The notes beneath the pieces were generated by a model. The model worked only from the letters and a program-made list of their open reading frames with translations. It made no database searches and was not told the origin of the DNA. Positions 1 through 20,678 of a stretch of DNA of 64,000 bases are shown one piece after another (position 1 is the first letter of the stretch; each line of letters starts with the position of its first letter). The stretch spans positions 64,409 through 128,408 of the forward strand of contig CAYQKL010000001.1 in assembly GCA_964418185.1 (NCBI GenBank), in the 5' to 3' direction. The position numbers were made by a program, and so were the translations under genes. The DNA comes from an uncultured bacterium. GTDB lineage: Bacteria > Hydrothermota > Tepidihabitantia > SM23-42 > JAOAFX01.

Positions 1-100
1 GTCAAATTTTTGCGTATAACTTTTCAGTGCCCTATCACCGTACCTTTTTACCTCCCCAATCACCTTTGAAACCATCGATAACTCAGCACTCATCTGACAT

Positions 101-131
101 CTATAAAAATCATTACCCAGATTTTGGTAAT
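101..131 (-). terminator. possible intrinsic terminator downstream of trpG (6-bp stem AUUACC/GGUAAU followed by GAUUUUUAU on the minus-strand RNA)
   Basis: Short inverted repeat at 112-117 / 126-131 with a U-run on the transcribed strand; the stem is weak. Confidence 0.25.
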
Positions 132-140
132 AGACTATCC

Positions 141-749
141 TCAATTTTTCCTCCCCTGTTTTAATCTCTTCTTTGCTACAAATCTATATATTTCAAGAAA
201 ATTTCTCAGAATCTTTTTCCCGGATTTTGTCAGGATGGACTCCGGATGAAACTGTACCCCTTCAACATCATAAACCCGATGTTTCAACCCCATTATCAAA
301 CCATCGTTTGTCCAGGCAGTCACTTCAAGACAATTAGGAAGGCTTTCTCTTTCGACTATGAGCGAATGATAGCGCGTTGCCAGAAAAGGATTCCTTATTT
401 TCCAAAAGATATCCTTTTTGTTATGATAAATTAAAGATACCTTTCCATGCACAATATGATCTGCCCTTATAATTTTTCCGCCAAATACCCTTGCGATTGC
501 CTGATGCCCAAGACATACACCAAAAATTGGAATTCTATCAGCGAAAGCCTCAATGATTCTACAGGTCATGCCCGCATCATCAGGCGTTTTTGGACCCGGT
601 GAAATAAATATATAATCTGGTTTTAGTCTTCTTATCTTCATAATCGTTATCTCATCATTGCGGTATATCATCAATCTTTCGCCCATTGCCCCCAGATATT
701 GGGCGAGATTATAGACAAAAGAATCATAATTGTCAATCAAAAATATCAT
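141..749 (-). CDS. trpG: anthranilate synthase component II / glutamine amidotransferase (TrpG/PabA-type)
   Basis: Class I glutamine amidotransferase with GVCLGHQ catalytic-Cys motif; 4-nt overlap with trpE upstream; last gene of the supraoperon. Confidence 0.8.
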   Translation of the reverse strand: MIFLIDNYDSFVYNLAQYLGAMGERLMIYRNDEITIMKIRRLKPDYIFISPGPKTPDDAGMTCRIIEAFADRIPIFGVCLGHQAIARVFGGKIIRADHIVHGKVSLIYHNKKDIFWKIRNPFLATRYHSLIVERESLPNCLEVTAWTNDGLIMGLKHRVYDVEGVQFHPESILTKSGKKILRNFLEIYRFVAKKRLKQGRKN

Positions 750-2128
750 ACCATCTCCAGCGCTAATCTCAATGCCTTAATCTTATTTATTGTCTCCTGA
801 TATTCTTTCTGAGGTAGCGAATCAGCAACAATTCCTGCACCCCCCTGGATATAGGCGACATTGTTCTTCACAAGAATTGTCCTGATCGCAATACAGAAAT
901 CCATATTTCCGCCAAAATCAAAATAGCCTATCGCTCCGGCATATAAACCCCGCTTGACGGGTTCTAATTCATCAATGATTTCCATTGCCCTGATCTTTGG
1001 TGCACCTGAAACTGTGCCGGCAGGAAATGAGGCACTGAAAAGGTCAAATGCATCACAGTTCTTACGTAGATTTCCAGTGACATTTGAAACGATGTGCATG
1101 ACCCTGGAATACCGCTCAATTTTTAAGAGTGTAGTTGGTTTCACTGTTCCATATCTGCACACCCTGCCCAGGTCATTTCGTGCCAGGTCAACAAGCATAA
1201 TATGTTCAGCAAGTTCCTTTTCATCACTAAGGAGTTCTCTTTCTAATCTGCTATCCACTGTGACATTTTCCGCCCTGGGTCTGGTTCCTGCAAGAGGTCT
1301 GGATATTGCTACGCCGTCTTTCAGTTTTATAAGGATTTCAGGTGAGGAACCGAGGATAGTAATGTCATCAAGTTGCAGATAATACATATATGGTGAAGGA
1401 TTGGTCAGACGCAACGCGCAGTATATGTTAAATGATGAAGAATTAACAACGGTCTTCATTCGTTGGGAAAGAACGACCTGAAATATGTCGCCCGCAAAGA
1501 TGTAGTCCTTTGCCTTTTTTACAATGTTGCAGAATTCATCAGTGGTAAAATTTGAGTCATACTTCATTGACCTCTTCCCCTTCACTGATAAAATCTGTTT
1601 ATCTTCAGGCATATATAGAATTCTCTTTAAGTCATCAAGGCGATCTTTGTCTTTATTATACAAAATAATTTCGCAGGTACCGTATCGGTGGTCAAAGACG
1701 ATGATCTCTTCAGGAAAGATAAAAAAAAGATCAGGTATTTTCAGTTCATCAGGATTATTATCCGGAATTTTCTCAAAATATCTAATCGCATCATAAGAAA
1801 CATAACCCACTGCACCACCTGAGAATGGTGTAAAATATGAATGTATCCTGCTTGGTTTAATAATCTGCCGTAAAGACAAAAATGGATTGCCAGTTTTTAG
1901 ATCTTCTCTATCTTGATAAACTATCTGAATACGATTATTCTTTGCCTTGAAGATTATCCTGGGCATGGCGCCGATGAATGAATACCGTCCCCTTTCGCCA
2001 CCCTGTTCAAGCGATTCATATAAGAATGCGTAAGGTTCATTTTCATAGAGCATTTTGAATGCTGAAACAGGTGAGATTCTAAACCCAGAAAACTTTTTTC
2101 TAATTCTTAAACTGAATGCATCTTCCAT
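746..2128 (-). CDS. trpE: anthranilate synthase component I
   Basis: 460 aa chorismate-binding enzyme with LAGTRPR and GAIGY motifs; adjacent to trpG. Confidence 0.85.
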   Translation of the reverse strand: MEDAFSLRIRKKFSGFRISPVSAFKMLYENEPYAFLYESLEQGGERGRYSFIGAMPRIIFKAKNNRIQIVYQDREDLKTGNPFLSLRQIIKPSRIHSYFTPFSGGAVGYVSYDAIRYFEKIPDNNPDELKIPDLFFIFPEEIIVFDHRYGTCEIILYNKDKDRLDDLKRILYMPEDKQILSVKGKRSMKYDSNFTTDEFCNIVKKAKDYIFAGDIFQVVLSQRMKTVVNSSSFNIYCALRLTNPSPYMYYLQLDDITILGSSPEILIKLKDGVAISRPLAGTRPRAENVTVDSRLERELLSDEKELAEHIMLVDLARNDLGRVCRYGTVKPTTLLKIERYSRVMHIVSNVTGNLRKNCDAFDLFSASFPAGTVSGAPKIRAMEIIDELEPVKRGLYAGAIGYFDFGGNMDFCIAIRTILVKNNVAYIQGGAGIVADSLPQKEYQETINKIKALRLALEMV

Positions 2129-3404
2129 AACAAACTCTTTTCAGCAAATCAATAAAATCAGGAAAAGATATGCTGATACATTCGCAATCCTTGATGACTG
2201 TTCTACCCTCAGCAATTAAACCGGCGATTGTCATTGCCATAGCAATTCTGTGGTCCTGGTGACTATTGCATACAGCCCCCTTCAGCCTTGTCGGTCCATT
2301 GATCAACAATCCATCTTCAATCTCTTCTATATTTGCGCCAAATTTTTTCAATTCTGTGAAGATTGCCCTGATACGATCAGTCTCTTTTATCCGCAATTCT
2401 CCCGCATCTTTAATTATTGTCCTACCTTTGATCTGGGTTGCCAGAACCGCAAGCACAGGGATCTCATCAATCAATTTCGGAATCATTGGACCAAAGACCT
2501 TAAAAGGAGAAAGCATTGACCTTTTTATCATAATGTCAGCAACCGGCTCTCCTCCAACTATTCGGTAATTATCCATATTGATCTGAGCGCCTGCGTCTTT
2601 AAGCGTCTCAATCATACCACAACGTAAAGGATTGACACCAGTATCTTTGAGAACTAATTTATCGCCCGCAGTCAAAATTCCCAGCACAATAAAGAATGCA
2701 GCTGAAGATATATCGTTGGGAATCCAGATCGTTTTGCCTCTAAATTGTTGTCGCGGGAATATGATGATACTCTCTTTTGTTTTACAAAATTTTATCTGAA
2801 AATAATCAAAAATTTTTTCGGTATGGTCTCTTGTCGGAATCTGTTCTTCAATTGTAGTCCTGGAATTCGCATAAAGTCCGGCAAGCATCAATGCCGACTT
2901 CACCTGGGCGCTGGCAACGGGCAATCGGTAATCTATTCCTTTTAATGTAGAACCGATTATACACAATGGTGCGAGACCTTTGTTTCTACTATGTATCTTT
3001 GCACCCATTTGTTCTAATGGTTCAATAACCCTCCTCATCGGTCTCTTTCTCAAGGACTCATCACCGGTAAGTATTGAATTGAATCTCTGTCCAGCGAGTA
3101 AACCACTTAATAGACGCATTGTTGTGCCGGAATTGCCACAATCAAGTATATCCTCTGGTTCACCAAGTCCATCCAAACCCTTTCCTGATACCACAATTTC
3201 ATCTTTTTTGGTTTCAATTTCTATACCCATTTTTCGTAGGCATTTTAGCGTTGATAGACAATCCTCAGCATGAGAATAATTATTGATTCTTGTTTTACCT
3301 TTTGCAATTGCTCCAAGAATCAGACTGCGATGGGTGATTGATTTGTCGCCGCCCACCGAGATTTTTCCTGAACTTTTACTACATTTTTTGATCAATAGAT
3401 TCAT
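2100..3404 (-). CDS. aroA: 3-phosphoshikimate 1-carboxyvinyltransferase (EPSP synthase)
   Basis: 434 aa; N-terminal KSITHRSLILGAIAKGKT motif typical of EPSP synthase. Confidence 0.85.
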   Translation of the reverse strand: MNLLIKKCSKSSGKISVGGDKSITHRSLILGAIAKGKTRINNYSHAEDCLSTLKCLRKMGIEIETKKDEIVVSGKGLDGLGEPEDILDCGNSGTTMRLLSGLLAGQRFNSILTGDESLRKRPMRRVIEPLEQMGAKIHSRNKGLAPLCIIGSTLKGIDYRLPVASAQVKSALMLAGLYANSRTTIEEQIPTRDHTEKIFDYFQIKFCKTKESIIIFPRQQFRGKTIWIPNDISSAAFFIVLGILTAGDKLVLKDTGVNPLRCGMIETLKDAGAQINMDNYRIVGGEPVADIMIKRSMLSPFKVFGPMIPKLIDEIPVLAVLATQIKGRTIIKDAGELRIKETDRIRAIFTELKKFGANIEEIEDGLLINGPTRLKGAVCNSHQDHRIAMAMTIAGLIAEGRTVIKDCECISISFPDFIDLLKRVCYGRCIQFKN

Positions 3405-4239
3405 TTACACCATCCTTTACAACCGGATAACTTCCAAGGAATTTGAAGTAGACAGATACATTTTCTAAGGTTTCAATCGCACTTCGACAATTTTCCTCTT
3501 CAATACTACCCCGGAAATCAATATAAAAAATGTACTCCCAGGGCTTTCCAATGATCGGTCTTGACTCAAGTTTCAACAGATCAATGTTGCGCAAGGCAAA
3601 GATGCTCAAACAGCGAAACAGAATTCCTGGTTCGTTCTTTACCCCGAATACCAGGGTAGATTTTGCCTCTGGCCCCGCAAAAATTTTCTTTTCTTTTGAA
3701 AGTATGAGAAAGCGGGTAAAATTCATTGGATTATCTTCAATCTTTTTTCTTACTGCCTTCAAACCGTAGATCGCACCTACCTGTGGACCAGCAATGATAC
3801 CAACCTCGGTCTTGTTCTCTTTTACTACAACCTCAGCCGCACCGGCTGAATCAAAGAATGAAACAATCTTGTATTTCTGATTCTCCAACAGAAATCCCCG
3901 GCACTGTTCTAAGGCTGCAGGATGTGACCAGATCTCCCTGATATCCTCTAAGTGACCAATGCTGAAGAGATCATAGGTTATCTTCAATTCAACTTCAGCG
4001 ATTATCCAGAAATCGTGATTTAGCAACAGGTCATAATTTCTATGGATACTACCCATCAGAGAATTTTCAATGGGTAAAATTGTATATGCATCCTGATCAT
4101 TACTCAATGCACCTAAGGCATCCTCAAACCTTGTGAGCCCAACATATTCAACCGTGTTTCCGAAATAGGTCTGCCCGGCGAGTTCACTGTAGGCACCCCT
4201 TGTCCCCTGAAAATATACTTTGAGATTATCTCTTTTCAT
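3379..4239 (-). CDS. pheA: prephenate dehydratase (PDT domain plus C-terminal ACT domain)
   Basis: 286 aa with the TRF...ESRP signature; no chorismate mutase domain. Confidence 0.8.
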
Positions 4240-5255
4240 AGTGTCCTGCCAATTGCATTGGCGATCTTTTTAATATCTTCCATCAACTCTCTAAAGACTT
4301 CAATTTTTAGCGATTGCTTTCCATCGGAAAGGGCGTTCGTTGGATCCGGATGAACCTCGACAATTATGCCATCGGCGCCAGCAGCGATTGCGGATTTCGC
4401 CAGGGCATTAACATATCTCCAATCACCTGAGGCGTGACTTGGATCAACAATGATTGGTAAGTGGGAGAATCTTTTTGCTACTGGTATTGCACTAATATCA
4501 AGGGTATTTCTTGTATAGGTCTCAAATGTTCTTATGCCTCGCTCACATAGAACCACATTCTGATTTCCTTCCGCAAGAATGTATTCAGCCGCCATCAGCC
4601 ACTCTTCAATCGTTGCTGACATTCCTCTTTTTAATAATACCGGCTTATTAAATCTGCCCACGGTTTTCAATAATGGAAAGTTTTGCATATTCCGCGCACC
4701 AATCTGCAATATATCAGCATACTTATAGACTAACGGAACATCAATCTCTGAAAGAACCTCAGTGACAATAGATAAACCTGCCTTTTCCCTTGCCCGAGCA
4801 AGTATCTCCAGACCCTTTTCACCAAGTCCTTGGAAACTGTAAGGTGAACTGCGGGGTTTATATGCCCCGCCGCGCAGATACTGTGCACCGGATTCTTTCA
4901 GGGCACAGGCAAGTTCAATCATCATACTTTCAGATTCCACTGCGCAGGGACCGGCAATCACAGCAATCATTCTATCACCAATCGTTTTACCATTAACTGA
5001 TACAACAGTATTTTCAGGATGGAATTCCCGGCTGGCAAGTTTGAACGGACTCAATATCGGTATGAGATTTTCAACCGCAGGTAGAGATTCAACTGCCTTG
5101 ATGAGTTTTTCTCTATCTGTAACACCGATGATATGGATCACGGTCTTTTTCTCACCGAGAAAAATCTTTGTACCATAACCCAATTCTTCAACTTTTTTTC
5201 TCACCCTATCTATATCTTCTTTAAGGGCTCCTGCCGACATTGTAATTATCATCAC
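4236..5255 (-). CDS. 3-deoxy-7-phosphoheptulonate (DAHP) synthase, type I-beta (KDO8PS-like) with N-terminal ~80-aa regulatory domain, paralog 1
   Basis: 339 aa; catalytic core IAGPCAVES...GARNMQN...KRG; N-terminal ferredoxin-like extension as in Thermotoga-type DAHPS. Confidence 0.8.
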
Positions 5256-5265
5256 TTACCTCCTC

Positions 5266-6279
5266 TTAAACTGTTCTGCCAATGGCTTGCGTTATAATCT
5301 TTAATTCCTCAACCAATTTTTGAAAACCTCTAACATTTAATGATTGAGGACCATCAGATAGTGCTTTTTCCGGATTGTTATGGACCTCCACCATTATCCC
5401 GTCAGCGCCAGCCGCAATTGCCGCCCGAGATAGAGGCAAAACCATATCACGTTTTCCCGAAGCATGACTCGGGTCGGCAATCACTGGCAAATGTGAAATT
5501 CTTTTCAATTCCGGAATGCTACTGATATCAAGGGTGAAACGGGTAAAATCGCTGAATGTCCTTATCCCCCTTTCACAAAGAATAACATTGTAGTTGCCTT
5601 CAGACATAATGTACTCGGCCGCCAATAAGAACTCCTGAATGGTAGAAGCCATTCCTCTCTTCAGCAGTACTGGTTTCTTACATCTTCCAGCTCTTTTCAA
5701 GAGTGAATAATTCTGCATATTCCTTGCTCCAATCTGGATGATATCTGCATATTCCTCAACCAGCGAAAAGACTTCTGTATCTACTGCTTCAGATACCACG
5801 GGTAAGTTTGTTTCTTTACCTGCTTTGGACAATATCTTCAATCCTTCTTCACCCATTCCCTGGAATGAATATGGCGAGGTACGGGGTTTAAATGCGCCGC
5901 CACGCAGCATATCGGCACCAATGGACTTCACTGCTTGAGCAATGCTTATGACCTGCGCTTCTGATTCAACCGCACACGGGCCTGCAATTACCACTGCCTT
6001 TTTATTACCAATTACTACGTTACCAATCTCTATCTTTGTATCATCCGGTTTCATCTCTCTACTGGTCAACTTATATGGCTGGGTAACAGGAATGACATTT
6101 ATCACCCCATCCTGTGCCTCAATCTTTTGTCTATCAATCATATCTTTATTACCGGTAATGCCAATTGCCACACGCTGGGCGCCTTTTATTGGATGGGGCA
6201 CAAGCCCCATCTCTTTTATCACCTGACAGACCGCTTTTATCTGGTCTTCAGTTGCATCCTTGTGCATAACCACAAGCAT
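5266..6279 (-). CDS. 3-deoxy-7-phosphoheptulonate (DAHP) synthase, type I-beta with N-terminal regulatory domain, paralog 2
   Basis: 337 aa; same architecture and motifs ([18 protein letters not shown]) as the adjacent paralog. Confidence 0.8.
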   Translation of the reverse strand: MLVVMHKDATEDQIKAVCQVIKEMGLVPHPIKGAQRVAIGITGNKDMIDRQKIEAQDGVINVIPVTQPYKLTSREMKPDDTKIEIGNVVIGNKKAVVIAGPCAVESEAQVISIAQAVKSIGADMLRGGAFKPRTSPYSFQGMGEEGLKILSKAGKETNLPVVSEAVDTEVFSLVEEYADIIQIGARNMQNYSLLKRAGRCKKPVLLKRGMASTIQEFLLAAEYIMSEGNYNVILCERGIRTFSDFTRFTLDISSIPELKRISHLPVIADPSHASGKRDMVLPLSRAAIAAGADGIMVEVHNNPEKALSDGPQSLNVRGFQKLVEELKIITQAIGRTV

Positions 6280-7060
6280 ATAACCTCCTTTTATTTTTTG
6301 TGGTTGCTTCTTTAAATTTCTTTAGCAACATCTTTAAATCTTCTTTATTTCTTATTGCCTCAATTATCCTGCTACCAATTACAACACCATCTGCAACCTG
6401 ACACAATCTCCTGACCTGTTTGGGATTTGAAATGCCAAATCCTACAACAACAGGCTTTTTTACAATCTTCTTAACTTTACTTATAAATATGGGTAAGGTT
6501 CTGGGAAGCCTTTTCCTCACCCCGGTCGTCCCTGTAACACTTAAACAATATACAAAACCACTGCTCATCTTCCCAATCATTCTTATTCTTTCTGTATTTG
6601 ATGTCGGTGCAACCAATTGTATCAAATTTATTCTATAATTATCAGCAAATTTTTCAATCAATCCTGATTCTTCAACCACCAGATCCGGCACGATCAATCC
6701 TGAAATACCAATTTGAGAAATCTTTTTATAAAATTCCTCAATACCGAACGCAAAGACAGGGTTCAAATAGGTCATAATGACAAGTGGAGTTTCAATCTCT
6801 ATTTGTGCAATCTCTTCAAATATTTTATTAAGTGCTATTTTATTATTCAACGCAATATTTGATGCATACTGTATCGTCTTTCCATCCGCAATCGGGTCTG
6901 AAAAAGGGATTCCTATCTCAATAATGTCTGCATATAAACTGCTCTCTTTTATATATTTGATTGATTCTTTAATCCCTGGATAACCTGCAGTAAGATATAC
7001 AATCAAGGCAGATTCATTATTTTTTGAAAGGCATTCAAACTTTTTATCAATCTTATTCAT
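6248..7060 (-). CDS. trpA: tryptophan synthase alpha chain
   Basis: 270 aa; N-terminus ([11 protein letters not shown]) and overall TrpA pattern. Confidence 0.8.
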
Positions 7061-8249
7061 AAAACTCCTCTACAATCTGGAGGTCCTTATCACCCCTTCC
7101 TGAAAGGTTTACGATGATTATCTTTTCTGGATTTATCTTCTTTGCCTCCTTGATTGCGATATATACTGCATGGGCGCTCTCCAGTGCTGGTATGATACCT
7201 TCGGTCTCAGTGAGAATTCTAAATGCCTTGAGTGCCTGTTTGTCTGTGCAGGAAGTATACTGGACACGACCTTTGGATCTTAAAAAGGCATGCTCTGGAC
7301 CAACCCCCGGATAATCAAGGCCTGGTGCAATGGAATGGGTTGGACTTATCTGCCCATCACCATTCTGGAGCACATAACTCATTGCTCCATGGAGAACACC
7401 CATCGTTCCATAAGAAAGTGTTGCTGAATGTTTCTTTGTATAAATTCCCTTTCCACCAGCCTCAACACCGAGCATCTTTATTTCTGTATCAAGGAAGGGA
7501 TGAAAAAATCCTATTGCATTGCTACCGCCACCAACACAGGCAATGAGGAGGTCAGGCATTCTCCCGGTTATTTTCAATATCTGTTTTTTCGTCTCTTTGC
7601 CAATGACTGATTGAAAATCGCGCACCATCATTGGATATGGATGTGGACCAACGACCGAGCCAATACAATAATAAGTCGTCCTCACATTCGTTACCCAATC
7701 CCTTATCGCCTCATTTATTGCATCCTTCAAGGTCTGTGTTCCTGAATCAACCGGTATTACATCTGCACCGAGGAGTTTCATCCTTAAGACATTCATACTT
7801 TGCCTTTGAACATCCTTCTTCCCCATATATATTACACATTGCAAGCCGAACAAGACACAGGCAGTAGCGGTTGCTACACCATGCTGACCTGCACCGGTCT
7901 CAGCAATTATCCTCTTTTTTCCCATCATCTTTGCCAGAAGGACCTGGCCAATCGTATTATTTATCTTGTGCGCACCGGTATGGAGGAGGTCTTCCCTTTT
8001 AAAATAGAGCCTTGCACCTTTTAATCTCTCTGATAGATTCTTTGCATAATATAATGGAGTTGGCCTTCCTGCACAATTTTTTAGATAATGATTCAGTTCG
8101 CGTTTGAAATCAGGACTGTTCTTAAGGCGATTATATGCCTCTTCAAGTTCAATAATGGCGGACATCAAAGTCTCAGGGACGAATCTGCCACCAAACCTGC
8201 CAAAATATCCCTTTTTGTCAGGCTTCTTATAAGCCATCTCCTCCCCCAT
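7053..8249 (-). CDS. trpB: tryptophan synthase beta chain
   Basis: [16 protein letters not shown] and HTGAHKINN (PLP lysine) motifs. The ORF extends to 8324, but the conserved N-terminus begins at MAYKK or MGEEM, so the start is placed near 8237-8249 (uncertain). Confidence 0.8.
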
Positions 8250-8667
8250 TAATAAAGTATTCAATTGCAAGGATATATCCATACCAGCCCAGCCCTGTAA
8301 TCTGACCAGTACATACTGGTGCAATCAAACTTTTGTGTCGGAATGGCTCGCGCGCGTAAATATTGCTGATATGGACCTCTATTGACTTTATCCCAACTCC
8401 CTCAATTGCATCCCTTATTGCCACAGATGTATGGGTATAGGCACCGGGATTTATCACTATCCCATCATAAACATCAGCAGTCTGAATCAAATTGATTATT
8501 TCAGTTTCTGAATTTGTCTGGTGGATATCAACTTCTATATTTTTCTCTCGTACAAAATCAATGATCCTTTTATTGATTTCCTTAAGACTTAAAGACCCAT
8601 AGACCTCCGGAATTCTTTTCCCCAGTAGATTTAGATTTGGTCCGTGGATCAAAAGAATTTTCTGCAT
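8227..8667 (-). CDS. aroQ: 3-dehydroquinate dehydratase, type II
   Basis: 146 aa; [19 protein letters not shown]-terminus typical of type II DHQase. Confidence 0.85.
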
Positions 8668-11265: not shown

Positions 11266-12037
11266 ATCGCACCTCCTTTAATGCCTTTTCCATTATGTTG
11301 ACCGGTGGTTTAATTCCTGTCCACAAGCTGAACGAATAGGCCGCCTGGATGACAAGCATACAAAAACCATTGACTACCTTAATGCCTTTGTATCTTTTCA
11401 AGCTGAAGCAGTAATTTGTATCATAGTATATGCTACCAGGTCTCAATTTGGGCACAATTGTATTATAAAGGTCTGTTGAGGTAGCATTTACCACCATATC
11501 AACCTCAGCAACAAAATCATAGATAAGATCAAATTCTATTGCCTTTGCTTTGCAAATTTCAACAACTTTAAGAGTATTCTCAAATGTGCGATTTGCCACC
11601 AGAATTTCTGCTGGTCTTTCTCTTTTTAAGACATACGCGCAGGCGCGTGCCACACCACCAGCACCAATAAGAAGAACTCTTTTATTTCTTAACCTAATCT
11701 TATTTTCTCTCAGCGATTCATAGTATCCATACACATCTGTATTTTCGCCAAGCAGACAATTATTATCTACAACAACTGTATTTATTGCACCAACCTCTCT
11801 GGCAATCAAACTTGTCCTATCAACATAATCAAGGCTACTTATCTTATACGGATTAGTTATATTGAGACCTGCAAAATCCAATTTTCTCAGACTATCAAAA
11901 AATATCCCCAAATCCGCAGGTGCAACACATAATGGATAATACCTACCTTCTATATGTAATTTTTTGAATGCATAATTGTGCAGAATTGGAGAGTAGGTTA
12001 GTCTTAGAGGATAGCCAATCACACCGGCAATGAACAT
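11258..12037 (-). CDS. aroE: shikimate dehydrogenase
   Basis: Conserved N-terminus MFIAGVIGYPLRLTYSPILHN. The probable start is the internal ATG at 12037, preceded by AGGAGG; the ORF extends to 12112. Confidence 0.75.
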   Translation of the reverse strand: MFIAGVIGYPLRLTYSPILHNYAFKKLHIEGRYYPLCVAPADLGIFFDSLRKLDFAGLNITNPYKISSLDYVDRTSLIAREVGAINTVVVDNNCLLGENTDVYGYYESLRENKIRLRNKRVLLIGAGGVARACAYVLKRERPAEILVANRTFENTLKVVEICKAKAIEFDLIYDFVAEVDMVVNATSTDLYNTIVPKLRPGSIYYDTNYCFSLKRYKGIKVVNGFCMLVIQAAYSFSLWTGIKPPVNIMEKALKEVRCD

Positions 12038-12636
12038 TTTCGCACCTCCTGAATAAATCTTTCTATCTTCTCTGAATCTTTTTTCCCCGGTTCTTTTTCT
12101 ACCCCTGTACACACATCGACACCATAAGGTCTCAACAGGTCAATAACCTGTCTGACATTGAAACAATTCAAACCGCCGGCAACAATAATCCTGCCTTTTA
12201 TGCCGGCTATAATTTTCCAGTCAAAAGTAATACCGCTCCCTTCACCCGGGTCAAAAACAAAGGCAGATACATCGTATTTCTCCATTTGTCCAACTATCTC
12301 TTCTCTGTTTGAATTATTGCAAATCCTGATTCTTTTTATTACGCGCGCCGACTTTATTGCCCGACAGTAATCCTCATCTTCAAACCCATGAAGCTGGACT
12401 GCATCAATGCCTGTGAATTGAATGATTTGATTTACGACTTCAAGTGGGCTATCTTTAAAAACTCCAACTGTGGTGATAAAAGGTGGCAATACTTTGATAA
12501 TCTTCCTTGCGGTAGTTGGTTCAATCATTCTTGAGGATTGTGCAAAGACAAAGCCCAGGGCATCAGCTCCCAATTCTGAAGAAACGAGGGCATCCTTGAA
12601 ATTCGTAATTCCGCAGATTTTGATCTTGCTACTCAT
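12019..12636 (-). CDS. trpF: phosphoribosylanthranilate isomerase
   Basis: 205 aa; KICGIT N-terminal motif of TrpF. Confidence 0.8.
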   Translation of the reverse strand: MSSKIKICGITNFKDALVSSELGADALGFVFAQSSRMIEPTTARKIIKVLPPFITTVGVFKDSPLEVVNQIIQFTGIDAVQLHGFEDEDYCRAIKSARVIKRIRICNNSNREEIVGQMEKYDVSAFVFDPGEGSGITFDWKIIAGIKGRIIVAGGLNCFNVRQVIDLLRPYGVDVCTGVEKEPGKKDSEKIERFIQEVRKCSLPV

Positions 12637-13714
12637 TTAGCCATCTGCTCCCATCTTCAAAGACCTTCCTGAACATAGCGCTGTTACCTTTTTGAATAGT
12701 CTTAGTGATTTCGTTTAGGGTCTTCTGCAACTGATTGAAGATTACTTTCTGGTATGGATTCAGTCTTTGAATCTCATAGTACAGCGCTGGATTTTCGTGA
12801 ACTACACTACGGGTCGTAACCAATTGAGAATTGAATGTTGTGCTCGCCACGCACTTCAGACTACAAAATTCATAACCACTTGTCAGAAGTATTTTGATAA
12901 AGAGTATGTTTATGAAATGAGATAACCCAAGCACATAAGAGATTAAGCGATCGTGCTCAACATACGGCAGAGGAATGATCTTTGCTGCAGTACCTCTAAA
13001 AAAATTCATCGCCTTATCATCTGCCTGTGCACAACCGCAATTACACAGACAAATCACTTTGTCAGCAAGAGTTTTGCAGGCGGGGCCAAACATTGGGTGG
13101 ATACTGGTAATCTTAATGTTGTTTTCAATTGCGTCCTTAATCGCTGGTATGATATGACTCTTTACACTACCAATATCGCAAACAACTCCAGGAAATCTTA
13201 GTACTGAGATCTTTCTTAGAATTTCCGGTACAACCCCTAATGGAGTAGCAATCAGCACAAAACTCTTCTTAAACAATGCCTTTTTCAAATCTCTGTAGTA
13301 TGGAAATCCATCAATACCCGATTTCTGCACATCACATATTGATACCCGATGCCCTTGATTTTGGAAAAAATATGCAAACCATTTGCCCATTGCACCGAGT
13401 CCACCGATGATCAGGATATCTTCACGCGTCCCAGAATATGCCGTATAATGCAACTTCTCCTGTTGAACTCGTGATTGTTCAATGATATTAGAAAAGATTG
13501 ATCTTATGAAATTTTCATCCAGGTTCATCTGCACAGCACACCTCAATGCATTATCAATCACACCCTTTTCAACATTCCAATCCTGTAATGGAATTCTCAA
13601 TCTTTTTTTCTCCCTGCCAATCTCTTTGACCACACTCAGTCGTTGATTGATCAACCTAATAATCTTTCGGTCAAAATTCTTGACCCTTTTTCTTAAGATT
13701 TTGAGTCTGTTCAT
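12629..13714 (-). CDS. tyrA: bifunctional chorismate mutase (AroQ class) / prephenate dehydrogenase
   Basis: N-terminal ~85 aa is a helical CM domain (RKKIDRIDxxLLxLLxERxxLVxEIG-like). It is followed by a Rossmann GxGxxG (IIGGLGAMGKW) prephenate dehydrogenase domain. Confidence 0.75.
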   Translation of the reverse strand: MNRLKILRKRVKNFDRKIIRLINQRLSVVKEIGREKKRLRIPLQDWNVEKGVIDNALRCAVQMNLDENFIRSIFSNIIEQSRVQQEKLHYTAYSGTREDILIIGGLGAMGKWFAYFFQNQGHRVSICDVQKSGIDGFPYYRDLKKALFKKSFVLIATPLGVVPEILRKISVLRFPGVVCDIGSVKSHIIPAIKDAIENNIKITSIHPMFGPACKTLADKVICLCNCGCAQADDKAMNFFRGTAAKIIPLPYVEHDRLISYVLGLSHFINILFIKILLTSGYEFCSLKCVASTTFNSQLVTTRSVVHENPALYYEIQRLNPYQKVIFNQLQKTLNEITKTIQKGNSAMFRKVFEDGSRWLNE

Positions 13715-13717
13715 TTT

Positions 13718-14491
13718 TTACCTCTCCCCTATCAATGTTGATAATTTCTTTTCAATATTTCTTGCCCTGAGTAAAGAGGTTCCGATGAGGATTCCATCAA
13801 AACCTGCATTCTCTAACATTTTAACATCCCTGCGATCCTTTATACCACTCTCACTCACAGTCAGAAAGTGGTCAGGAATTATTTTGCGCAATTTCAAAGA
13901 TAGATTTATGTCTACTTGAAAATTACCAAGATTGCGATTATTGATTCCGATAATATCCGTTTCGGTGGTTATCGCCTTTTTTATGTCCTGTTGAGTATGG
14001 ACTTCAACCAATGTCTTCAAGCCAAGCGAATGGGCGATATTTATGAAATTCTTCAGTTTATCCAATCCGAGTATCCGGGCAATCAACAATACCGCATCGG
14101 CACCAAGGAAATAAGATTCAAAAATTTGAAATTCCTCAATGATGAAGTCCTTTCTCAATATTGGCAGACTGCTCATTTTCTTCACCTGTTCAATATGGTC
14201 ACCCTTTCCACCAAAAAATCTTTCGTCGGTGAGCACCGAAATGGCATCAGCACCTCCCGATTCATAGATCAATGCGATCTTTGAAGGTTCAAAACATTTT
14301 CTAATTACACCTCTGGAAGGCGACATTCTCTTTATCTCCGCGATCAACGCTATTCCATGCTTGTTGAACCCATCAGTGAAATCCCTTAATTCAGAATGTC
14401 TGCCCTTTAACAACTCCCGAATTGAAGTGATCTTTTTCTTCCGGGAAATTTCCACTCTCTTATATCTGATTATGTTTCTGAGCACATTCAT
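13718..14491 (-). CDS. trpC: indole-3-glycerol phosphate synthase
   Basis: 257 aa; IAEIKRMSPSRG motif. Confidence 0.85.
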   Translation of the reverse strand: MNVLRNIIRYKRVEISRKKKITSIRELLKGRHSELRDFTDGFNKHGIALIAEIKRMSPSRGVIRKCFEPSKIALIYESGGADAISVLTDERFFGGKGDHIEQVKKMSSLPILRKDFIIEEFQIFESYFLGADAVLLIARILGLDKLKNFINIAHSLGLKTLVEVHTQQDIKKAITTETDIIGINNRNLGNFQVDINLSLKLRKIIPDHFLTVSESGIKDRRDVKMLENAGFDGILIGTSLLRARNIEKKLSTLIGER

Positions 14492-15500
14492 TTGTATATC
14501 TCAACAGTTCTTCTACTTTTTTTAATGCCAAGCCTGTAAAAACTGATTTCTTTGCAAGTTCAATACCTTCTTTAATTGATCCTGCTTTACCCGCGACATA
14601 TATCACCGCACCAGCATTGAATATCGCCATATCAGTTTTGGGACCGGAAGCTCCATTCAGAATTGCCATAAAGGCATCCAGATTATCCTGACTGTTCTTA
14701 ACCTTTAACTCTTCTATGCTACAAGTCTTGAAACCAAACTCTTCAGGTATGAGTTCATAGCAACTTATATTGCCGTCCTTTACTTCTTTTACATAGGTCT
14801 TTGTTGTAACAGTTATCTCATCAAGACCATCAGCCCCGTAGAAAACAAGAGAGTGTTGTACTCCGAAATTTCTTAATGTCTCAGCGATTTTGTTCACAAA
14901 TTCTTTTTGACATACTCCAATCACCTGCCTTTGCACACCAGCCGGATTACAAAGTGGACCTATCAAATTGAAGATTGTTCTTATACCCATTTCCTTTCTC
15001 GGTCCGCTGGCAAATTTCATTGCGGGATGAAAGAGTGGTGCAAATAGAAAACCAATACCTATGTCTTCAATACAATTTTTCAGAGCATCGGCGTTTAAGT
15101 CGATTCTTATCTTCAATGCTGAAACAAGGTCGGCACTTCCACACAAACTTGAAACCGAACGATTACCATGTTTTGCGACTGAACAACCTGCCCCTGCAGC
15201 AATAAATGCCGCAGCCGTTGAGACATTAAAGGTGTGTGCACCGTCCCCGCCCGTGCCGCAGGTGTCCACAAGGTTTTTTGAAGCACAATCTATACGGATC
15301 ATTTTTTCGCGCATTGCCCGAGCAAAACCGGTAATCTCATCTACATCTTCACCTTTCATCCTCAAACCGGTAAGTAAGGCACCAATCTGGGCAGGTGTTA
15401 CATTACCTTCCATAATTTCAAGGCATACTTCATATGCCTGTCTCTGCGTAAGGGATTGATTTTCTGTCAGCAGTTTTATAGCTTCAACAATATTTATCAT
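14460..15500 (-). CDS. trpD: anthranilate phosphoribosyltransferase
   Basis: 346 aa; CGTGGDG motif. Confidence 0.85.
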   Translation of the reverse strand: MINIVEAIKLLTENQSLTQRQAYEVCLEIMEGNVTPAQIGALLTGLRMKGEDVDEITGFARAMREKMIRIDCASKNLVDTCGTGGDGAHTFNVSTAAAFIAAGAGCSVAKHGNRSVSSLCGSADLVSALKIRIDLNADALKNCIEDIGIGFLFAPLFHPAMKFASGPRKEMGIRTIFNLIGPLCNPAGVQRQVIGVCQKEFVNKIAETLRNFGVQHSLVFYGADGLDEITVTTKTYVKEVKDGNISCYELIPEEFGFKTCSIEELKVKNSQDNLDAFMAILNGASGPKTDMAIFNAGAVIYVAGKAGSIKEGIELAKKSVFTGLALKKVEELLRYTNECAQKHNQI

Positions 15501-15507
15501 AGATACC

Positions 15508-16536
15508 TCAATTCGTACTACTCTTTCCTATACCTTCAAGGCAGAAAAGAGATTTAGAAATGTTAAAACAAGAATAGTTTCCGGTGTGGCAGGCAAAACC
15601 ATTTTGCTTTACAATCGCAAGCACTGCATCACGGTCACAATCTGCCCTTACCTTGATCAATTCCTGAGTATTGCCAGAGGTTCTACCCTTGAACCATAAC
15701 TCCTGGCGGCTTCTTGAAAAATACCACATCTTGTTGGTCTCAAAGATCTTTCTGAGTGATTCTTTGTTAGAGTAGGCAAGCATCAAGACACAACCTGATA
15801 TATCCTGAACAATCGTAGGAATAAGTTCACCCTTCCAGTTGAGTGTCTCAATGAAAGCCTCAGGTAGCGAAATTTTTCCTGTATACAACGCCATCCCCAG
15901 CTGGACATCAACATCCAGCCGGGCAAGGGTCCTTATCTCATCCATACTTGCTACGCCACCCGCAATGGTTATCTTCTTGTCTGTACATACCTTTATCTTC
16001 TCAACCATCTTCATATCAATTCCCTGCATTGTTCCTTCCCTTTCTACAATGGTAAAGAGAAATTCATCTGTATAAGGCTCAAATACCTTTATCCAATCAA
16101 ACAGATTAAGCCCAATATTCTGTTGCCAGCCTTTGATAACAATCGAACCATTAATAGAATCAAGGGCAATGATAATTTTGTCCGGTCCTATTTCATTCTT
16201 AAGGGATAATAAGAATTGGTGATTGGGTTGATTCTTATCAAATGCCCTTGAACCAATAATGATTTTGTGGGCACCCGCATTGATCAACTCTTTTGCCCTT
16301 TCAATTGTGCGAATTCCGCCACCCACACGACAATCGGCAATTTTTAATAACTGCTTGATAGTATTCAGGTTTTCTCCTCTACCCATTGCCGCATCAAGGT
16401 CAATCACTGCGATTTCATTATATCGGTCAAATTCTTTTGCCAGTTTCAGGGCATCATCATATTCTAAAACCTTTTCTCGACCCTGCCTTAACTGGACAAC
16501 TTTACCACTCATCAAATCAATTGAACTGATTACCAT
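15508..16536 (-). CDS. hisA: bifunctional ProFAR isomerase (HisA) / phosphoribosyl-AMP cyclohydrolase (HisI) fusion
   Basis: Residues 1-240 are a HisA TIM barrel ([23 protein letters not shown]). The C-terminal ~100 aa is HisI ([19 protein letters not shown]...DCDRD...CHTG). Confidence 0.8.
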
Positions 16537-17285
16537 CTTACACCAACCCCCTTTTTATGAAGAAATTCTTTAATCTCTTTAATCGTAAACTGTTCAAAAT
16601 GCAACACTGATGCCAGAAGTACAGCATCCGCACAACCAGATTTGATCACTTCATATATCTGTTGAAGATTTCCTGCCCCACCTGAAGCAATCACTGGTAT
16701 GCCTGCTCTTGTTGCGATCGCCCTTGTCAAATTAATATCATAACCCTTCTGGGTGCCATCCTGATCTATTGAATTCAAAAGAATTTCTCCAGCCCCAAAC
16801 CTCTCACATTTTCTTGCCCATCTGATCACATCAATTCCCGTATCAAACCTTCCGCCATGTGTATAGGCATGCCATTTATCTCCTGCTTTTTTGGCATCAA
16901 TTGATACTACAATGCATTGGGAACCAAACAATTCTGAACCCTGTTTTATCAACTCAGGAGTCTGAATTGCTGCAGTACATATTGCCACCTTATCGGCGCC
17001 TGCATTGAGAAGACCGCGCATGTCATCTGTGGTCTTTATACCACCGCCAACACACAATGGAATAAATACCTTTTTTGCAACGGCTTCAACTACCTTTATC
17101 ATTGTCTTTCGGTTTTGAACAGATGCCGTAACATCAAGAAATATGAGTTCATCTGCGCCCTGTTCATTGTAGTATTGAGCAAGTACTACAGGATCACCCG
17201 CAATCCTCAAATTCTTAAACTTCACACCTTTCACAACCTTACCATTATCAACATCAAGACAGGGAATGATCCTTGTGGTTAACAT
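16530..17285 (-). CDS. hisF: imidazole glycerol phosphate synthase cyclase subunit
   Basis: 251 aa; HisF-type barrel ([19 protein letters not shown]). Confidence 0.85.
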
Positions 17286-17878
17286 TTTTCCACCCAGTTC
17301 TTTAATAATTGTATTCCTGCCCTGCCACTCTTTTCCGGATGGAACTGAACTGCATAAATATTACCCCGGTTAATGACTGATGCATACCTCACCCCATATT
17401 CAGTCACACCAATCACTGCGTCTTTCTCTTTTGTAGTAAGATAATAACTATGTAGAAAATAGAAAAATGGATTATCTTTTGTAGAATCAAATATCAAGGA
17501 ATTTCTCACTATCTCTACCCTGTTCCAGCCAATCTGAGGAATCTTGTATCTGCGGAATCTTCTGATACAACCCTTGAATATACCAAAGCCTCTTATTCCT
17601 TTTGCTTCTTCGCTTGATTCAAACAGCAACTGGAGTCCGAGACATATACCCAAAAACGGTCGATCTACTCTTAACCATTCAATCACCGGTTCAAAGAGTT
17701 TCGAGATCTTGAGTTTCTTAACTGCCGAACCAAACGCGCCCACACCAGGCAAAATAATTCTTTCAACACGACGCAGCCTTCTCGGATCATTTATTAATAA
17801 ATGCCTTACACCCAAGTATTCAAGTGCATTCATCACTGATTTGAGATTACCCGCACCATAGTCAACAATGCCAATCAT
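17279..17878 (-). CDS. hisH: imidazole glycerol phosphate synthase glutamine amidotransferase subunit
   Basis: 199 aa; GICLGLQ catalytic Cys and HPEKS motif. Confidence 0.85.
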   Translation of the reverse strand: MIGIVDYGAGNLKSVMNALEYLGVRHLLINDPRRLRRVERIILPGVGAFGSAVKKLKISKLFEPVIEWLRVDRPFLGICLGLQLLFESSEEAKGIRGFGIFKGCIRRFRRYKIPQIGWNRVEIVRNSLIFDSTKDNPFFYFLHSYYLTTKEKDAVIGVTEYGVRYASVINRGNIYAVQFHPEKSGRAGIQLLKNWVEKC

Positions 17879-18459
17879 AGAACTCCTTTTGTGCTCGGAA
17901 TCCTTTTTATTTTCTTATCAATCGCACTGGCCTGTTTCAATGCCCGGGCAAATGCCTTGAATATTGCCTCAACCTTGTGGTGGTCAGATCTTCCAGAAAG
18001 TAATTGAATATGCAGTGTGCACAGACATCCATTGACAAATCCCGCAAAAAAATCCTGCAGCACATCTGTCTTTAATTCACCTATCTTTTCACCCTTGAAA
18101 CTACCATAAAATTTCAAGAATGGTCTATTAGAAATATCTATTGCAACCATTGCAAGCGCCTCATCCATTGGCTGAATAAAAAATCCTGCGCGGTTGATAC
18201 CCTTTTTGTCACCCAGTGCCTTATTAAATGCCAGACCAAGGCAATAGCCCGTATCTTCAACAATATGATGCTGATCAACCTTAATATCACCTTTTATCCT
18301 GGCTTCAAGATTGAATCCTCCATGACGGCTCAGGGTTTCAAGCATATGGTTGAAGAATCCAATTGGTGAATTAATCTTATAATCACCCGTTCCATCAACA
18401 TTTAATTTTATCAAAATTTCGGTCTCTTTTGTCTTACGCTCAATCCTAAACTTACGCAT
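17875..18459 (-). CDS. hisB: imidazoleglycerol-phosphate dehydratase
   Basis: 194 aa; RKTKETEI N-terminus and IGPD-family His-rich motifs. Confidence 0.85.
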   Translation of the reverse strand: MRKFRIERKTKETEILIKLNVDGTGDYKINSPIGFFNHMLETLSRHGGFNLEARIKGDIKVDQHHIVEDTGYCLGLAFNKALGDKKGINRAGFFIQPMDEALAMVAIDISNRPFLKFYGSFKGEKIGELKTDVLQDFFAGFVNGCLCTLHIQLLSGRSDHHKVEAIFKAFARALKQASAIDKKIKRIPSTKGVL

Positions 18460-19520
18460 TATTTGCCTCCTAATTCTTGAATACTACTTATCAAATTCCT
18501 GATAAATATGTTATTCTCCTCTTTTTTCCCAATTGTAACTCTAAGCATATTCTCTAAGTAAGGATGGTTAAATCGGCGTACAAGAATTCCTTTTTTGTAA
18601 AGATAGTGGAAAAGGTCGAGTCCGGAGATCCTTTTCAAACCGAATAAAATGAAATTTGCCCGAGACGGAATCGGCGCAATCTCTGGTGTGTTATTTAATA
18701 TTTTGAATATCCTTTCTCGCTCATCAATGATCTTCGCTGCTGTATCCTGAACAAATCTCTTTTTCCCCAGCATGAAATTTCCTGCAACCTGCTGGAATAT
18801 CCCCACTGAAAATGGCGGCTTTGCCTTTGCAATATGTTTTATCACAACAGCATTACCCAGGGCATAACCGAGCCTTATACCAGCGAGTCCAAATGCCTTG
18901 GAGAATGTACGCAATATCAAGAGATTTCTATATTTGTCAAGTAACCTCTGGGCAGTCAATTTATGGAATTCATAGTATGCTTCATCAATGACCACCAGTC
19001 CTCGGGCTCTTTTCACAATCTCTTCAATCATATAGATTTCCATTGCCGTTCCTGTAGGATTATTGGGTGAAGCAAAAAACATTATCTTTGTGCTAAGTGC
19101 CTTTCTGATAATTGCATCAACGTCAAAAGAAAAATCCTTTTTCAGTGGAATTTCAAAAATATTAAAATTAAGAATCTGTGCAAAGTATTTGTAGATTGCA
19201 AAACCCGGTGTCACAAATGCAATATTATCTCCTTTATCACAGGTAGCGAGCATAATCGCAAGTATCAATTCATTTGAACCATTGCTAACCATAATTCCTT
19301 GTTCAGGGTGCTGAGTATAAATTGATAGTCTTTCTTTTAGTTTGATAAGATCATCGAGTGGGTAACGATTCCAGGGTATCTTTTTTATTCTCTCAAGAAT
19401 TTCTCTTTTGTGTTCCGCAGGAATATCATAAGGGGATTCATTCTGGTTCAATTTTATTCTTGCCTTCTGAGGTACTTCATAAGCAGGTAGATTGATTATT
19501 GATCTCTTTAGGTTTTTCAT
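18459..19520 (-). CDS. hisC: histidinol-phosphate aminotransferase (class II aminotransferase)
   Basis: 353 aa; LNQNESPY and TFSKAFGLAGIRLGY (PLP lysine) motifs. Confidence 0.8.
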   Translation of the reverse strand: MKNLKRSIINLPAYEVPQKARIKLNQNESPYDIPAEHKREILERIKKIPWNRYPLDDLIKLKERLSIYTQHPEQGIMVSNGSNELILAIMLATCDKGDNIAFVTPGFAIYKYFAQILNFNIFEIPLKKDFSFDVDAIIRKALSTKIMFFASPNNPTGTAMEIYMIEEIVKRARGLVVIDEAYYEFHKLTAQRLLDKYRNLLILRTFSKAFGLAGIRLGYALGNAVVIKHIAKAKPPFSVGIFQQVAGNFMLGKKRFVQDTAAKIIDERERIFKILNNTPEIAPIPSRANFILFGLKRISGLDLFHYLYKKGILVRRFNHPYLENMLRVTIGKKEENNIFIRNLISSIQELGGK

Positions 19521-20371
19521 ACCACAACCTTTTTGAATTCATATTCAAGGATGTCAGTTGCACCAAGTCTCTTTAACTGGGGAATGAGTTTTATCACCTC
19601 GCTCTTCTTCACCGCCACCTTCACGGCAAATCCTCTTGCGCCATATAAAGGAGCCACAGTTGGCGAACGCATACAGGGCAAGATTTTAACAATTCTATCA
19701 AATTTCTCCTTAGGCACATTCATCTCAAGCATTACCCTTTCCCGGGCATCAAGCACTGCCTGAAAGAGCATCTTCAGCTCCTCAATTTTATTTCGCTTCC
19801 ATTCGTCTTTCAGTGTGTTATTACTTGCAATAAACCTTGTGGTTGATTCCATGATAACTTTCAGAATTCTCAATTTATGCTCTTTCAAAGTCGTGCCGGT
19901 TGCGGTGTTATCAACAATCATATCTGCATCCTCAGGTGGATAAACCTCGGTCGCTCCATAGGTACGCAAAAATCTGTATCTATATCTTTCTCTTTTCAGA
20001 TAATCTCTGGTCAACCTCTCATATTCTGAAGCAACTACAATCTCTTTTTTGCGCAGATCTCTTTCCTTAATATTTTCTGGTATCGCCGAGACAATCTTTA
20101 CCGGATCCAATTTAAGATCCAGTATCTCTACAACATTAACATCAGATTCTATTACCCAATCTTTACCAGTAAATCCCGCATCATGTGAACCAATCTCCAC
20201 TAATTCAGGAATGTTCTGCGGTCTTAAGATCTTTATCTCAAGTTCAGGGTCACTTACAAATGGCCTGTATACTCGGTCATTTGCTCCAATGTCAATCCCG
20301 GCATCAATCAATAGTCTTGCGACCTTTTCATAAATACTGCCTTTGGGAATTGCTATTCTCAACCTCTTCAA
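19517..20371 (-). CDS. hisG: ATP phosphoribosyltransferase, long form with C-terminal regulatory domain
   Basis: 284 aa; LRIAIPKGS start and a C-terminal regulatory domain; RBS AAGGAGG upstream; first gene of the supraoperon. Confidence 0.85.
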   Translation of the reverse strand: MKRLRIAIPKGSIYEKVARLLIDAGIDIGANDRVYRPFVSDPELEIKILRPQNIPELVEIGSHDAGFTGKDWVIESDVNVVEILDLKLDPVKIVSAIPENIKERDLRKKEIVVASEYERLTRDYLKRERYRYRFLRTYGATEVYPPEDADMIVDNTATGTTLKEHKLRILKVIMESTTRFIASNNTLKDEWKRNKIEELKMLFQAVLDARERVMLEMNVPKEKFDRIVKILPCMRSPTVAPLYGARGFAVKVAVKKSEVIKLIPQLKRLGATDILEYEFKKVVV

Positions 20372-20500
20372 TTAAACCTCCTTTCCGCCAGATAGACTGA
20401 CGAATATAATCGTTTGGTCTTGAAGCCTTAACTAAATCCCGAAAAGGCTCTCTTCTTTTTTTTGCTAAAAATTAGGTTTTATGTGAGGTGATAGAATGGC

Positions 20501-20554
20501 GGCACTTCCGGGACCAAAAAGGATGTATTGACCCTTATTGGGCCCGGAAGTGCC
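20501..20554 (-). promoter_or_regulatory. 12-bp perfect GC-rich hairpin in the hisG 5' leader (GGCACTTCCGGG / CCCGGAAGTGCC, loop ~30 nt)
   Basis: Direct inspection of the inverted repeat. No U-tract follows on the transcribed strand, so it is not a classical terminator. Confidence 0.4.
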
Positions 20555-20678
20555 AATACCAGTAATGATTAAAGTGAAATCTTGTGTGGTTGTGGTTAAG
20601 TGCAAATAGATCCGATATTGTCCTCATCGGACAATCGGTCTTAAAATCTTTACCCAGATAAATCTTAACCACGATACG

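Follow-up and report, generated by a model that had tools for sequence, protein, structure and literature searches.

The leader peptides trpL, hisL and pheL control attenuation in Enterobacteria, and multivalent attenuators are known there in thrL (Thr and Ile codons) and in ilvL/ivbL (Ile, Leu and Val codons). In the textbook form of attenuation an operon responds to a single amino acid or to several of related chemistry. In the pyrBI and pyrE attenuators of Escherichia coli the leader open reading frame (ORF) overlaps the terminator hairpin, and a ribosome on the 5′ arm prevents termination without an antiterminator. These attenuators sense UTP through polymerase pausing coupled to the ribosome. 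The pheL leader has been described (PMC3082878), as have leader peptides of Actinobacteria (PMC1262725). In Bacillus subtilis the aro–trp supraoperon aroFBH-trpEDCFBA-hisC-tyrA-aroE has a trp operon nested in an aro operon, and other trp/aro supraoperons are found in Desulfovibrio vulgaris and Nostoc/Anabaena (PMC1173090). The locus described here lies in a 64,000-nucleotide (nt) stretch of contig CAYQKL010000001.1 from an uncultured bacterium, referred to as the window. It joins his genes to a block of trp and aro genes. The locus is probably one operon of 23 genes, served by a single promoter (20706..20679) and by a multivalent leader-peptide attenuator.

Gene identities were based on the ORF listing of the window and an NCBIfam profile search. 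Twenty-two consecutive ORFs were found on the minus strand from 141 to 20371, an unbroken run as in the initial annotation, and NCBIfam assignments agreed with that annotation for 22 of 22 names. The order is hisG-C-B-H-F-AI, then trpD-C, a chorismate mutase–tyrA fusion (CM-tyrA), trpF, aroE-C-KB-Q, trpB-A, two genes for synthases of 3-deoxy-D-arabinoheptulosonate 7-phosphate (DAHP), pheA, aroA and trpE-G (Table 1). The block had been taken to end at trpG (141). This boundary was too short. hisD opens at position 144 with a TTG, overlaps the trpG stop and exits at the window edge. On an identical Logan contig hisD encodes 423 amino acids (Histidinol_dh) and overlaps the trpG stop by 4 nt. A convergent gene follows 14 nt past hisD on that contig, so the predicted transcription unit is counted as 23 genes, approximately 21.6 kb.

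Two sets of starts were used, the longest ORFs in the window and the gene-caller starts on the identical Logan contig. With the longest ORFs 19 of the 22 junctions overlap and the remaining gaps are 3, 7 and 10 nt, which agrees with the earlier statement that no gap exceeds about 10 bp. With the gene-caller starts that limit is exceeded at pheA/aroA, where the largest gap is 22 nt. Overlaps were present at 18–19 of 22 junctions across the start sets. Many are of 4 or 8 nt, and such tight start/stop overlaps would favour translational coupling along the operon.

The claim that a whole his operon had been merged needs correction. The his set is nearly whole but incomplete, with neither a HisE domain nor a histidinol-phosphate phosphatase within the block. 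No HisE-like sequence was found in the whole 64 kb by tblastn using the HisE tail of a related locus, L089, as query. HisE (phosphoribosyl-ATP pyrophosphohydrolase, PRA-PH) is still fused to hisA-hisI in L089 (4332..5591, 419 amino acids) and in the Zixibacteria locus L016. The two DAHP synthases share 53% identity and each has an N-terminal FXD regulatory domain. This identity excludes a recent duplication and indicates old paralogues, which are probably isozymes differing in their feedback effectors. hisC is the sole aminotransferase of the block. HisC probably also serves Phe and Tyr synthesis as a shared aminotransferase, by analogy with hisC/hisHb of B. subtilis, a precedent for the dual role (PMC1173090). 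If true, this would supply a functional reason for the merger of his with trp/aro genes.

Like the B. subtilis supraoperon the locus is an operon nested in an operon, hisC, tyrA and aro genes are linked to trp genes, and the shared aminotransferase is the likely rationale. Unlike in B. subtilis, a trp/aro block of 16 genes forms the insert here, and its host is a nearly complete his operon. The gene order also differs throughout, and the unit has 23 genes. The leader lacks a (G/U)AG array and control by a leader peptide is proposed rather than control by an RNA-binding protein. Regulation of the TRAP (trp RNA-binding attenuation protein) type was rejected, as the 183-nt leader contains a single GAG/UAG triplet.

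The 776-nt region upstream of hisG holds the promoter. TTGACA/TTGACG-N16–17-TATACT/TATAAT is present at the same site in all relatives extending this far. The leader ORF begins with a GTG 6 nt past the −10 box, terminates in …FHFNHYWYWHFRAQ and stops 163 nt before hisG. In relatives it has 45–46 codons (37 in L089) with an in-frame start 6–7 nt past the −10 box. The start is ATG in L089 and L165, at the position of the window GTG. The gene caller of the collection independently predicts the ORF in L166 and L168. An ATG at 20627 was considered as the leader start and rejected; it is unconserved, and only the GTG/ATG 6–7 nt after the −10 box is kept. Promoter geometry alone suggests that the leader mRNA is leaderless with GUG initiation.

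Nowhere else in the 64 kb, read in all six frames, is the H/F/Y/W density as high as in the regulatory codon run near the end of the ORF. Its last six codons, YWYWHF, cover all four amino acids and form an invariant core, L089 included. Codon changes in NHYWYWHF among relatives comprise five synonymous and no non-synonymous changes, and the stop changes only from TAA to TAG. The sole length change in the alignment is a 3-nt in-frame insertion in L087. The peptide end …NHYWYWHFRAQ is constant in his-headed relatives of the window type, while the N-terminal two-thirds varies freely. The same promoter, start site, ORF length, peptide end and hairpin are present in L001–L005, L083, L084, L086–L088 and L166, where identity of the flanking proteins is no more than 45–85%. 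Synonymous-only changes, the kept stop, the in-frame indel and the GTG/ATG interchange together make up the comparative signature of codon reading, which suggests that the leader ORF is read as codons.

The 304-nt leader folds at z = −6.9 compared to shuffles. An RNAalifold consensus fold of 10 leaders gave two helices, P1 and P2, and a long hairpin which is the terminator candidate. P1 is a long-range helix that includes the leader start codon. The P2 pairs have compensatory changes on both sides. The long hairpin has a folding energy of −40.7 kcal/mol in the window, compared to −21 to −40 kcal/mol in relatives, and across 11 sequences 95% of cells pair. An internal U5 run lies within its 3′ arm, and T4–T7 directly follows the hairpin base in most relatives. 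A simple terminator scan missed this hairpin, which has a loop of more than 8 nt and a stem with internal loops. In constrained folding, a ribosome with its A site on any of Y-W-Y-W-H-F removes the hairpin. The six codons include all four amino acids, so shortage of any one would block the terminator.

In the proposed mechanism, the ribosome would stall at Y-W-Y-W-H-F when the charged tRNA of any of His, Phe, Tyr or Trp runs short. The stalled ribosome would keep the 5′ arm open, the terminator would not form and RNA polymerase would enter hisG. With all four amino acids plentiful the ribosome would finish and depart, the hairpin would form and transcription would stop. Alternatively, under plenty, P1 would hide the start codon, the ribosome would never load and the hairpin would form. 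No conserved alternative (antiterminator) helix was found by RNAalifold, and constrained and duplex folding were equally unconvincing. Such a helix would not be needed if the stalled ribosome acted by steric occlusion.

A box, AACCAY (GCCAU in the window, 20497..20502), lies between the GC stem and the U-tract. It repeats the P1 3′ strand CUUAACCAC (20592..20600), so either copy is a potential partner of the 5′-terminal GUGGUU. In the RNAalifold model, by contrast, ACCA is paired to UGGU, the first Trp codon. This may represent a third conformational state.

Several observations weigh against this mechanism. The single mRNA across the 23 genes is inferred from sequence. The conserved leader start has no Shine-Dalgarno sequence and leaderless GUG initiation is an assumption. 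In the steric model, stalls at the upstream His and Phe codons (LNHNH, FHF) are out of reach of the hairpin and do not open it. The upper part of the hairpin 5′ arm contains the stop codon, and in L165 the ORF spans the full hairpin. A ribosome held at the stop would therefore also block the terminator, and termination under plenty would need fast ribosome release, polymerase pausing (at the U5 run) or unloaded transcripts. Covariation in the stem is thin, with three compensatory pairs, all from L089. The window U-tract is degenerate (TTCTATC), and those of L084, L087 and L088 are also weak. Duplexes between upstream sequence and the 3′ arm scored 1.4–2.9 standard deviations better than shuffles in window-type leaders, and the antiterminator duplex scores of L089 and L165 were indistinguishable from shuffles.

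Between the U-tract and hisG lies a strongly G-depleted spacer in which C is commoner than G; in the leaders examined, stretches free of G measure 18–58 nt. The motif ACYNCAUA(A/C)AAA…YCC recurs past the U-tract even in the divergent L089 and L165 leaders. The spacer (20385..20489) may be a rut (Rho utilization) site or an unstructured standby region. Ribosome stalling could sense the four amino acids with Rho or another factor terminating in this G-poor spacer, as in tna; a stalled ribosome or the freed 3′ arm would then prevent factor loading. This is unlikely. It would account for the G depletion and the excess of C over G, for recurrence of the post-U-tract motif (ACYNCAUAAAA..YCC), for the weak window U-tract and for the stop-codon position, which is kinetically awkward for pure intrinsic termination. 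However, the spacer is A/U-rich rather than C-rich, a proper T4–T7 stands at the hairpin base in most relatives, and a textbook intrinsic terminator follows the leader of L163.

The proposed leader-peptide attenuator resembles the enterobacterial leaders in its short ORF between promoter and first gene, with end-product codons in the distal part and a hairpin and U-tract (degenerate in the window) alongside. Like the thr and ilv attenuators it would sense more than one amino acid by one peptide. Unlike the enterobacterial leaders, His and three aromatic amino acids, products of two separate pathways, would be sensed together, and the ORF is apparently leaderless and, at 45 codons, long. The codons that would do the sensing also make up the terminator 5′ arm, and no antiterminator of the 2:3 type was found. 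The leader ORF overlaps the hairpin, as in pyrBI/pyrE, although the window leader is proposed to sense amino acid supply by codon-specific stalling. In contrast to known attenuators it would control 23 genes, and no Rfam leader model fits. A search of the full-text literature, incomplete in coverage, yielded trp/aro supraoperons and leaders for single pathways, but neither a merger of his, trp and aro genes nor a leader that mixes His with aromatic codons. More tentatively, the leader may be a minimal portable attenuator of an undescribed kind. In such an attenuator the ORF would be leaderless, six codons would both sense and form the terminator base, the ribosome would be the only antiterminator, P1 would set the default to off, one switch would serve 23 genes and four products, and the cassette would be copied at every operon split.

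The closest genomes are metagenome-assembled genomes (MAGs) of candidate division WOR-3, with HisG identity of 75–81%. A metagenome scan was seeded with an alignment of six AroC sequences; the same scan seeded with a single AroC protein gave zero matches. The hisG…aroKB order is kept in five of these WOR-3 MAGs up to the limit of a 10-kb flank. The initial annotation had proposed a comparison of gene order in relatives as a check. The complete 22-gene order was found in L083, L084 and L089. The same order continues to the contig or flank limit in L001–L005, L086–L088, L093, L165 and L166, with L165 and L166 being two further named WOR-3 genomes. Altogether over 12 independent WOR-3 assemblies, produced in different projects, share the order, with protein identities of 43–85%. 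The comparison indicates that the merged arrangement is a trait of the lineage. Sequence comparison, the promoter, the leader and the packing of the genes all support the single long unit of his and trp/aro genes that had been suggested.

In L082, L093 and L166 the block stops after the first DAHP synthase. The separated half, DAHPS2-pheA-aroA-trpE-trpG-hisD, sits elsewhere in split relatives and was seen in L167 and L168. It is headed by its own promoter, a 45-codon ORF ending in …FNHYWYWHFRAQ and a hairpin. L167, a 3′ half with this cassette, belongs to the same genome as L005. The DAHPS1/DAHPS2 boundary in the window is the exact split point in relatives. In the window these two genes are spaced by 10–13 nt, so that a leader cassette cannot fit between them. 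Since the 3′ half bears its own cassette when split, the uncut block of the window would depend on the single upstream one. The cassette copy of the split form is the best available sequence-level argument for 23 genes on one promoter and leader.

Alternatively, the block could consist of several units transcribed from promoters within coding sequence, with the leader governing the proximal genes only. This is less probable than factor-dependent termination. Blocks of relatives cut between the DAHP synthases still function, and a perfect sigma-70 site (TTGACA-17-TATAAT, 12/12) is present at 736..708 on the minus strand, inside the 5′ end of trpG, with hisD lying downstream of it. As evidence of a hisD promoter this site was rejected. 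It coincides with the codons of a conserved TrpG motif, LIDNYDSFVYNL. L083 and L084 retain it, whereas in L089 and L092 it has degenerated as codons drifted, so that it is probably a by-product of coding. Promoter-like sites numbered 64 compared to 55.6 ± 7.6, an enrichment which is not significant. Gaps reach 22 nt at most, with overlaps at 18–19 of the 22 junctions. The separated 3′ module acquired a full promoter and leader, so the merged form would have had none inside. Internal terminators had also been named as a finding that would divide the block, and terminator-like sites within it were at chance level (13 compared to 13.5 ± 3.9 in shuffles). Weak internal promoters besides the main one, for example for hisD, are possible within the single 23-gene unit.

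In neighbouring lineages his-only operons have the order hisG-(C)-B-H-F-AI(E)-hisD, with hisD last. This order was found in MAGs of Calditrichota, KSB1, Ignavibacteria and Aminicenantes, among others. Like this his operon of the FCB (Fibrobacterota, Chlorobiota and Bacteroidota) type, the window has the same his order with hisD last, the hisA-hisI fusion and a leader ORF before hisG. What sets the window apart are the 16 trp/aro genes that separate hisAI from hisD, the loss of the HisE domain, and a leader in which Phe, Tyr and Trp codons accompany those for His. The trp/aro block also exists alone. L092 carries it in the same interleaved order with one DAHP synthase and no his genes, and in the L163/L164 clade it stands behind a 5′-truncated hisA′-hisIE remnant. 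Twenty-four contigs share the TrpD of this WOR-3 sub-clade, in which hisG through most of hisA has been lost. As his-only operons end in hisAI(E)-hisD and the trp/aro block occurs by itself, the arrangement is best read as an FCB-type his operon into which a pre-existing trp/aro operon was inserted, after hisAI(E) and ahead of the terminal hisD. The scrambled trp/aro order noted in the initial annotation is real. It is not specific to the merger; the stand-alone block (L092, L163) points to its inheritance from there, and the interleaved order is read as older than the merger. In L011 (Aminicenantes) a trpE-G-D-C-F-B-A-DAHPS-aroA operon is divergent from hisG…hisD, and in L016 and L017 (Zixibacteria, Aminicenantes) trpD-trpC-(trpF) is attached downstream of hisD. 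In this region of the tree, his and trp genes apparently came to be clustered on more than one occasion.

Leaders of other types were compared. The L089 peptide ends in …YFGHCYWYWHFRT and its leader has a shorter hairpin, three compensatory pairs and a U-rich tail. In L165 an ATG 6 nt after TATAAT opens a 45-codon ORF which contains …PFVYFFNYFWHPGH… and ends in …PFVYFFNYFWHPGHCLGCH. Its nucleotide sequence differs and it has its own hairpin, followed by T5. The leader of the trp/aro-only locus L092, MAKQIGHRTKKFNITGIYPCYYYWWTNFAWRYYWWEI, is preceded by a Shine-Dalgarno sequence and has Y6 W5 F2 with no His in the run. The leader of L163, upstream of the hisIE remnant and trp/aro genes, has W5 H4 Y3 and is followed by a canonical intrinsic terminator. 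This leader is likewise preceded by a Shine-Dalgarno sequence and has 51 codons; leader and hisA′-hisIE remnant were noted at L163 8921..9150 and 9468..10004 and in L164. The L163 Trp codons UGGAUGUGG are complementary to the 5′ arm of their own terminator. In the his-only operons L007, L010, L014 and L024, runs of His codons occur in short ORFs that lie 100–260 nt ahead of hisG. Examples are MRRHHHHTAHHW… and MKHFYHHTAHHH…, from hosts in Calditrichota, Treponematales and other MAGs. Three of these his-only leaders (L007, L010, L014) were scanned with the Rfam His_leader model and gave no match. Across these leaders the predicted amino acid composition follows the gene content of the operon downstream.

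It is highly improbable that the element ahead of hisG goes untranslated, acts as a structured RNA (riboswitch, or leader bound by a protein or tRNA) and has its reading frame incidentally. In favour of this reading, nucleotide conservation is extreme at the ORF end and hairpin, third positions included, the fold is very stable, and the start has no Shine-Dalgarno sequence. Against this, the unrelated sequences of L165, L163 and L092 encode a similar peptide before the same genes, NHYWYWHF changes are synonymous only with the stop kept and the one indel in frame, and His codons are missing exactly where his genes are missing. There was no TRAP array and no relevant leader or T-box match in Rfam for window positions 1..21500 at E ≤ 1. 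No Rfam match at gathering score was obtained in L089, L092, L163, L165, L007, L014 or L010. The only hit at that E limit in the window, to sR5, an archaeal C/D-box small RNA, at 3021..3067 on the minus strand inside aroA, was rejected as chance (22 bits at E = 0.21, compared to a gathering score of 40). A chimera made during assembly or binning can be dismissed, for although the window comes from a metagenome-type assembly, its sequence is identical on an independent Logan contig and the same order recurs in the divergent assemblies described above.

The divergent neighbour of the operon (21148..24432, plus strand) encodes a 1094-amino acid TamB-like protein, scoring 79.7 bits compared to a family cutoff of 825 bits. 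A promoter-like site lies at 21113..21140. If real, this protein fits an organism with an outer membrane.

Table 1. Features of the predicted his-trp/aro operon and its leader, in order of transcription (window coordinates).
Feature	Position	Strand	Basis
Sigma-70-type promoter, TTGACA, 16 nt, TATACT	20679..20706	-	Consensus score 11/12
Leader ORF, 45 codons, GTG start, peptide VVKIYLGKDFKTDCPMRTISDLFALNHNHTRFHFNHYWYWHFRAQ	20535..20672	-	ORF listing
5′ domain: helix P1 (GUGGUUAAGA : UCUUAACCAC) enclosing P2 (20638..20612)	20592..20672	-	RNAalifold
Regulatory codon run FHFNHYWYWHF	20547..20579	-	10/12 residues H/F/Y/W
YWYWHF, last six codons of run, in or beside hairpin 5′ arm	20547..20564	-	
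Long hairpin, terminator candidate; 5′ arm = codons W-Y-W-H-F-R-A-Q-stop	20497..20561	-	
Degenerate U-tract TTCTATC, immediately past hairpin base	20490..20496	-	
G-depleted spacer ending in hisG Shine-Dalgarno AGGAGG (20382..20377)	20377..20489	-	
hisG, long form with C-terminal regulatory domain	19517..20371	-	TIGR00070, TIGR03455
hisC, histidinol-phosphate aminotransferase	18459..19520	-	TIGR01141, 305.7 bits (cutoff 276.6)
hisB, imidazoleglycerol-phosphate dehydratase only	17875..18459	-	NCBIfam
hisH	17279..17878	-	NCBIfam
hisF	16530..17285	-	NCBIfam
hisA-hisI fusion, without HisE domain	15508..16536	-	NCBIfam; tblastn for HisE
trpD, first gene of inserted trp/aro block	14460..15500	-	NCBIfam
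trpC	13718..14491	-	NCBIfam
CM-tyrA, chorismate mutase–prephenate dehydrogenase fusion	12629..13714	-	NCBIfam
trpF	12019..12636	-	NCBIfam
aroE	11258..12037 (gene-caller start; longest ORF to 12112)	-	NCBIfam
aroC	10195..11265	-	NCBIfam
aroK-aroB fusion	8649..10202	-	NCBIfam
aroQ, type II dehydroquinase	8227..8667	-	NCBIfam
trpB	7053..8237 (gene-caller start; longest ORF to 8324)	-	NCBIfam
trpA	6248..7060	-	NCBIfam
DAHP synthase 1, N-terminal FXD domain; closes 5′ module in split relatives	5266..6279	-	
DAHP synthase 2; opens 3′ module in split relatives	4236..5252	-	
pheA, prephenate dehydratase with ACT domain	3379..4239	-	NCBIfam
aroA	2100..3356 (gene-caller start; longest ORF to 3404)	-	NCBIfam
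trpE	746..2128	-	NCBIfam
trpG, last gene of inserted trp/aro block	141..749	-	NCBIfam
hisD, first 48 codons, gene 23	1..144	-	Window sequence; Logan contig

A single peptide thus appears to report His and three aromatic amino acids, gating the enzymes that lead from erythrose-4-phosphate/phosphoenolpyruvate and from phosphoribosyl pyrophosphate (PRPP) to four products. The locus is a natural test case for how cells cope when separate pathways, with PRPP, glutamine amidotransferases and probably one aminotransferase in common, are regulated together. The sensor is compact and defined by its sequence, and the cassette of approximately 300 nt is suited to reporter constructs. The natural variant series, comprising his-only, trp/aro-only, merged and split operons with a duplicated cassette, is a comparative experiment on the co-evolution of leader and operon. 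The predicted mechanism would place leader-peptide attenuation, possibly on a leaderless mRNA, in the uncultured candidate phylum WOR-3.

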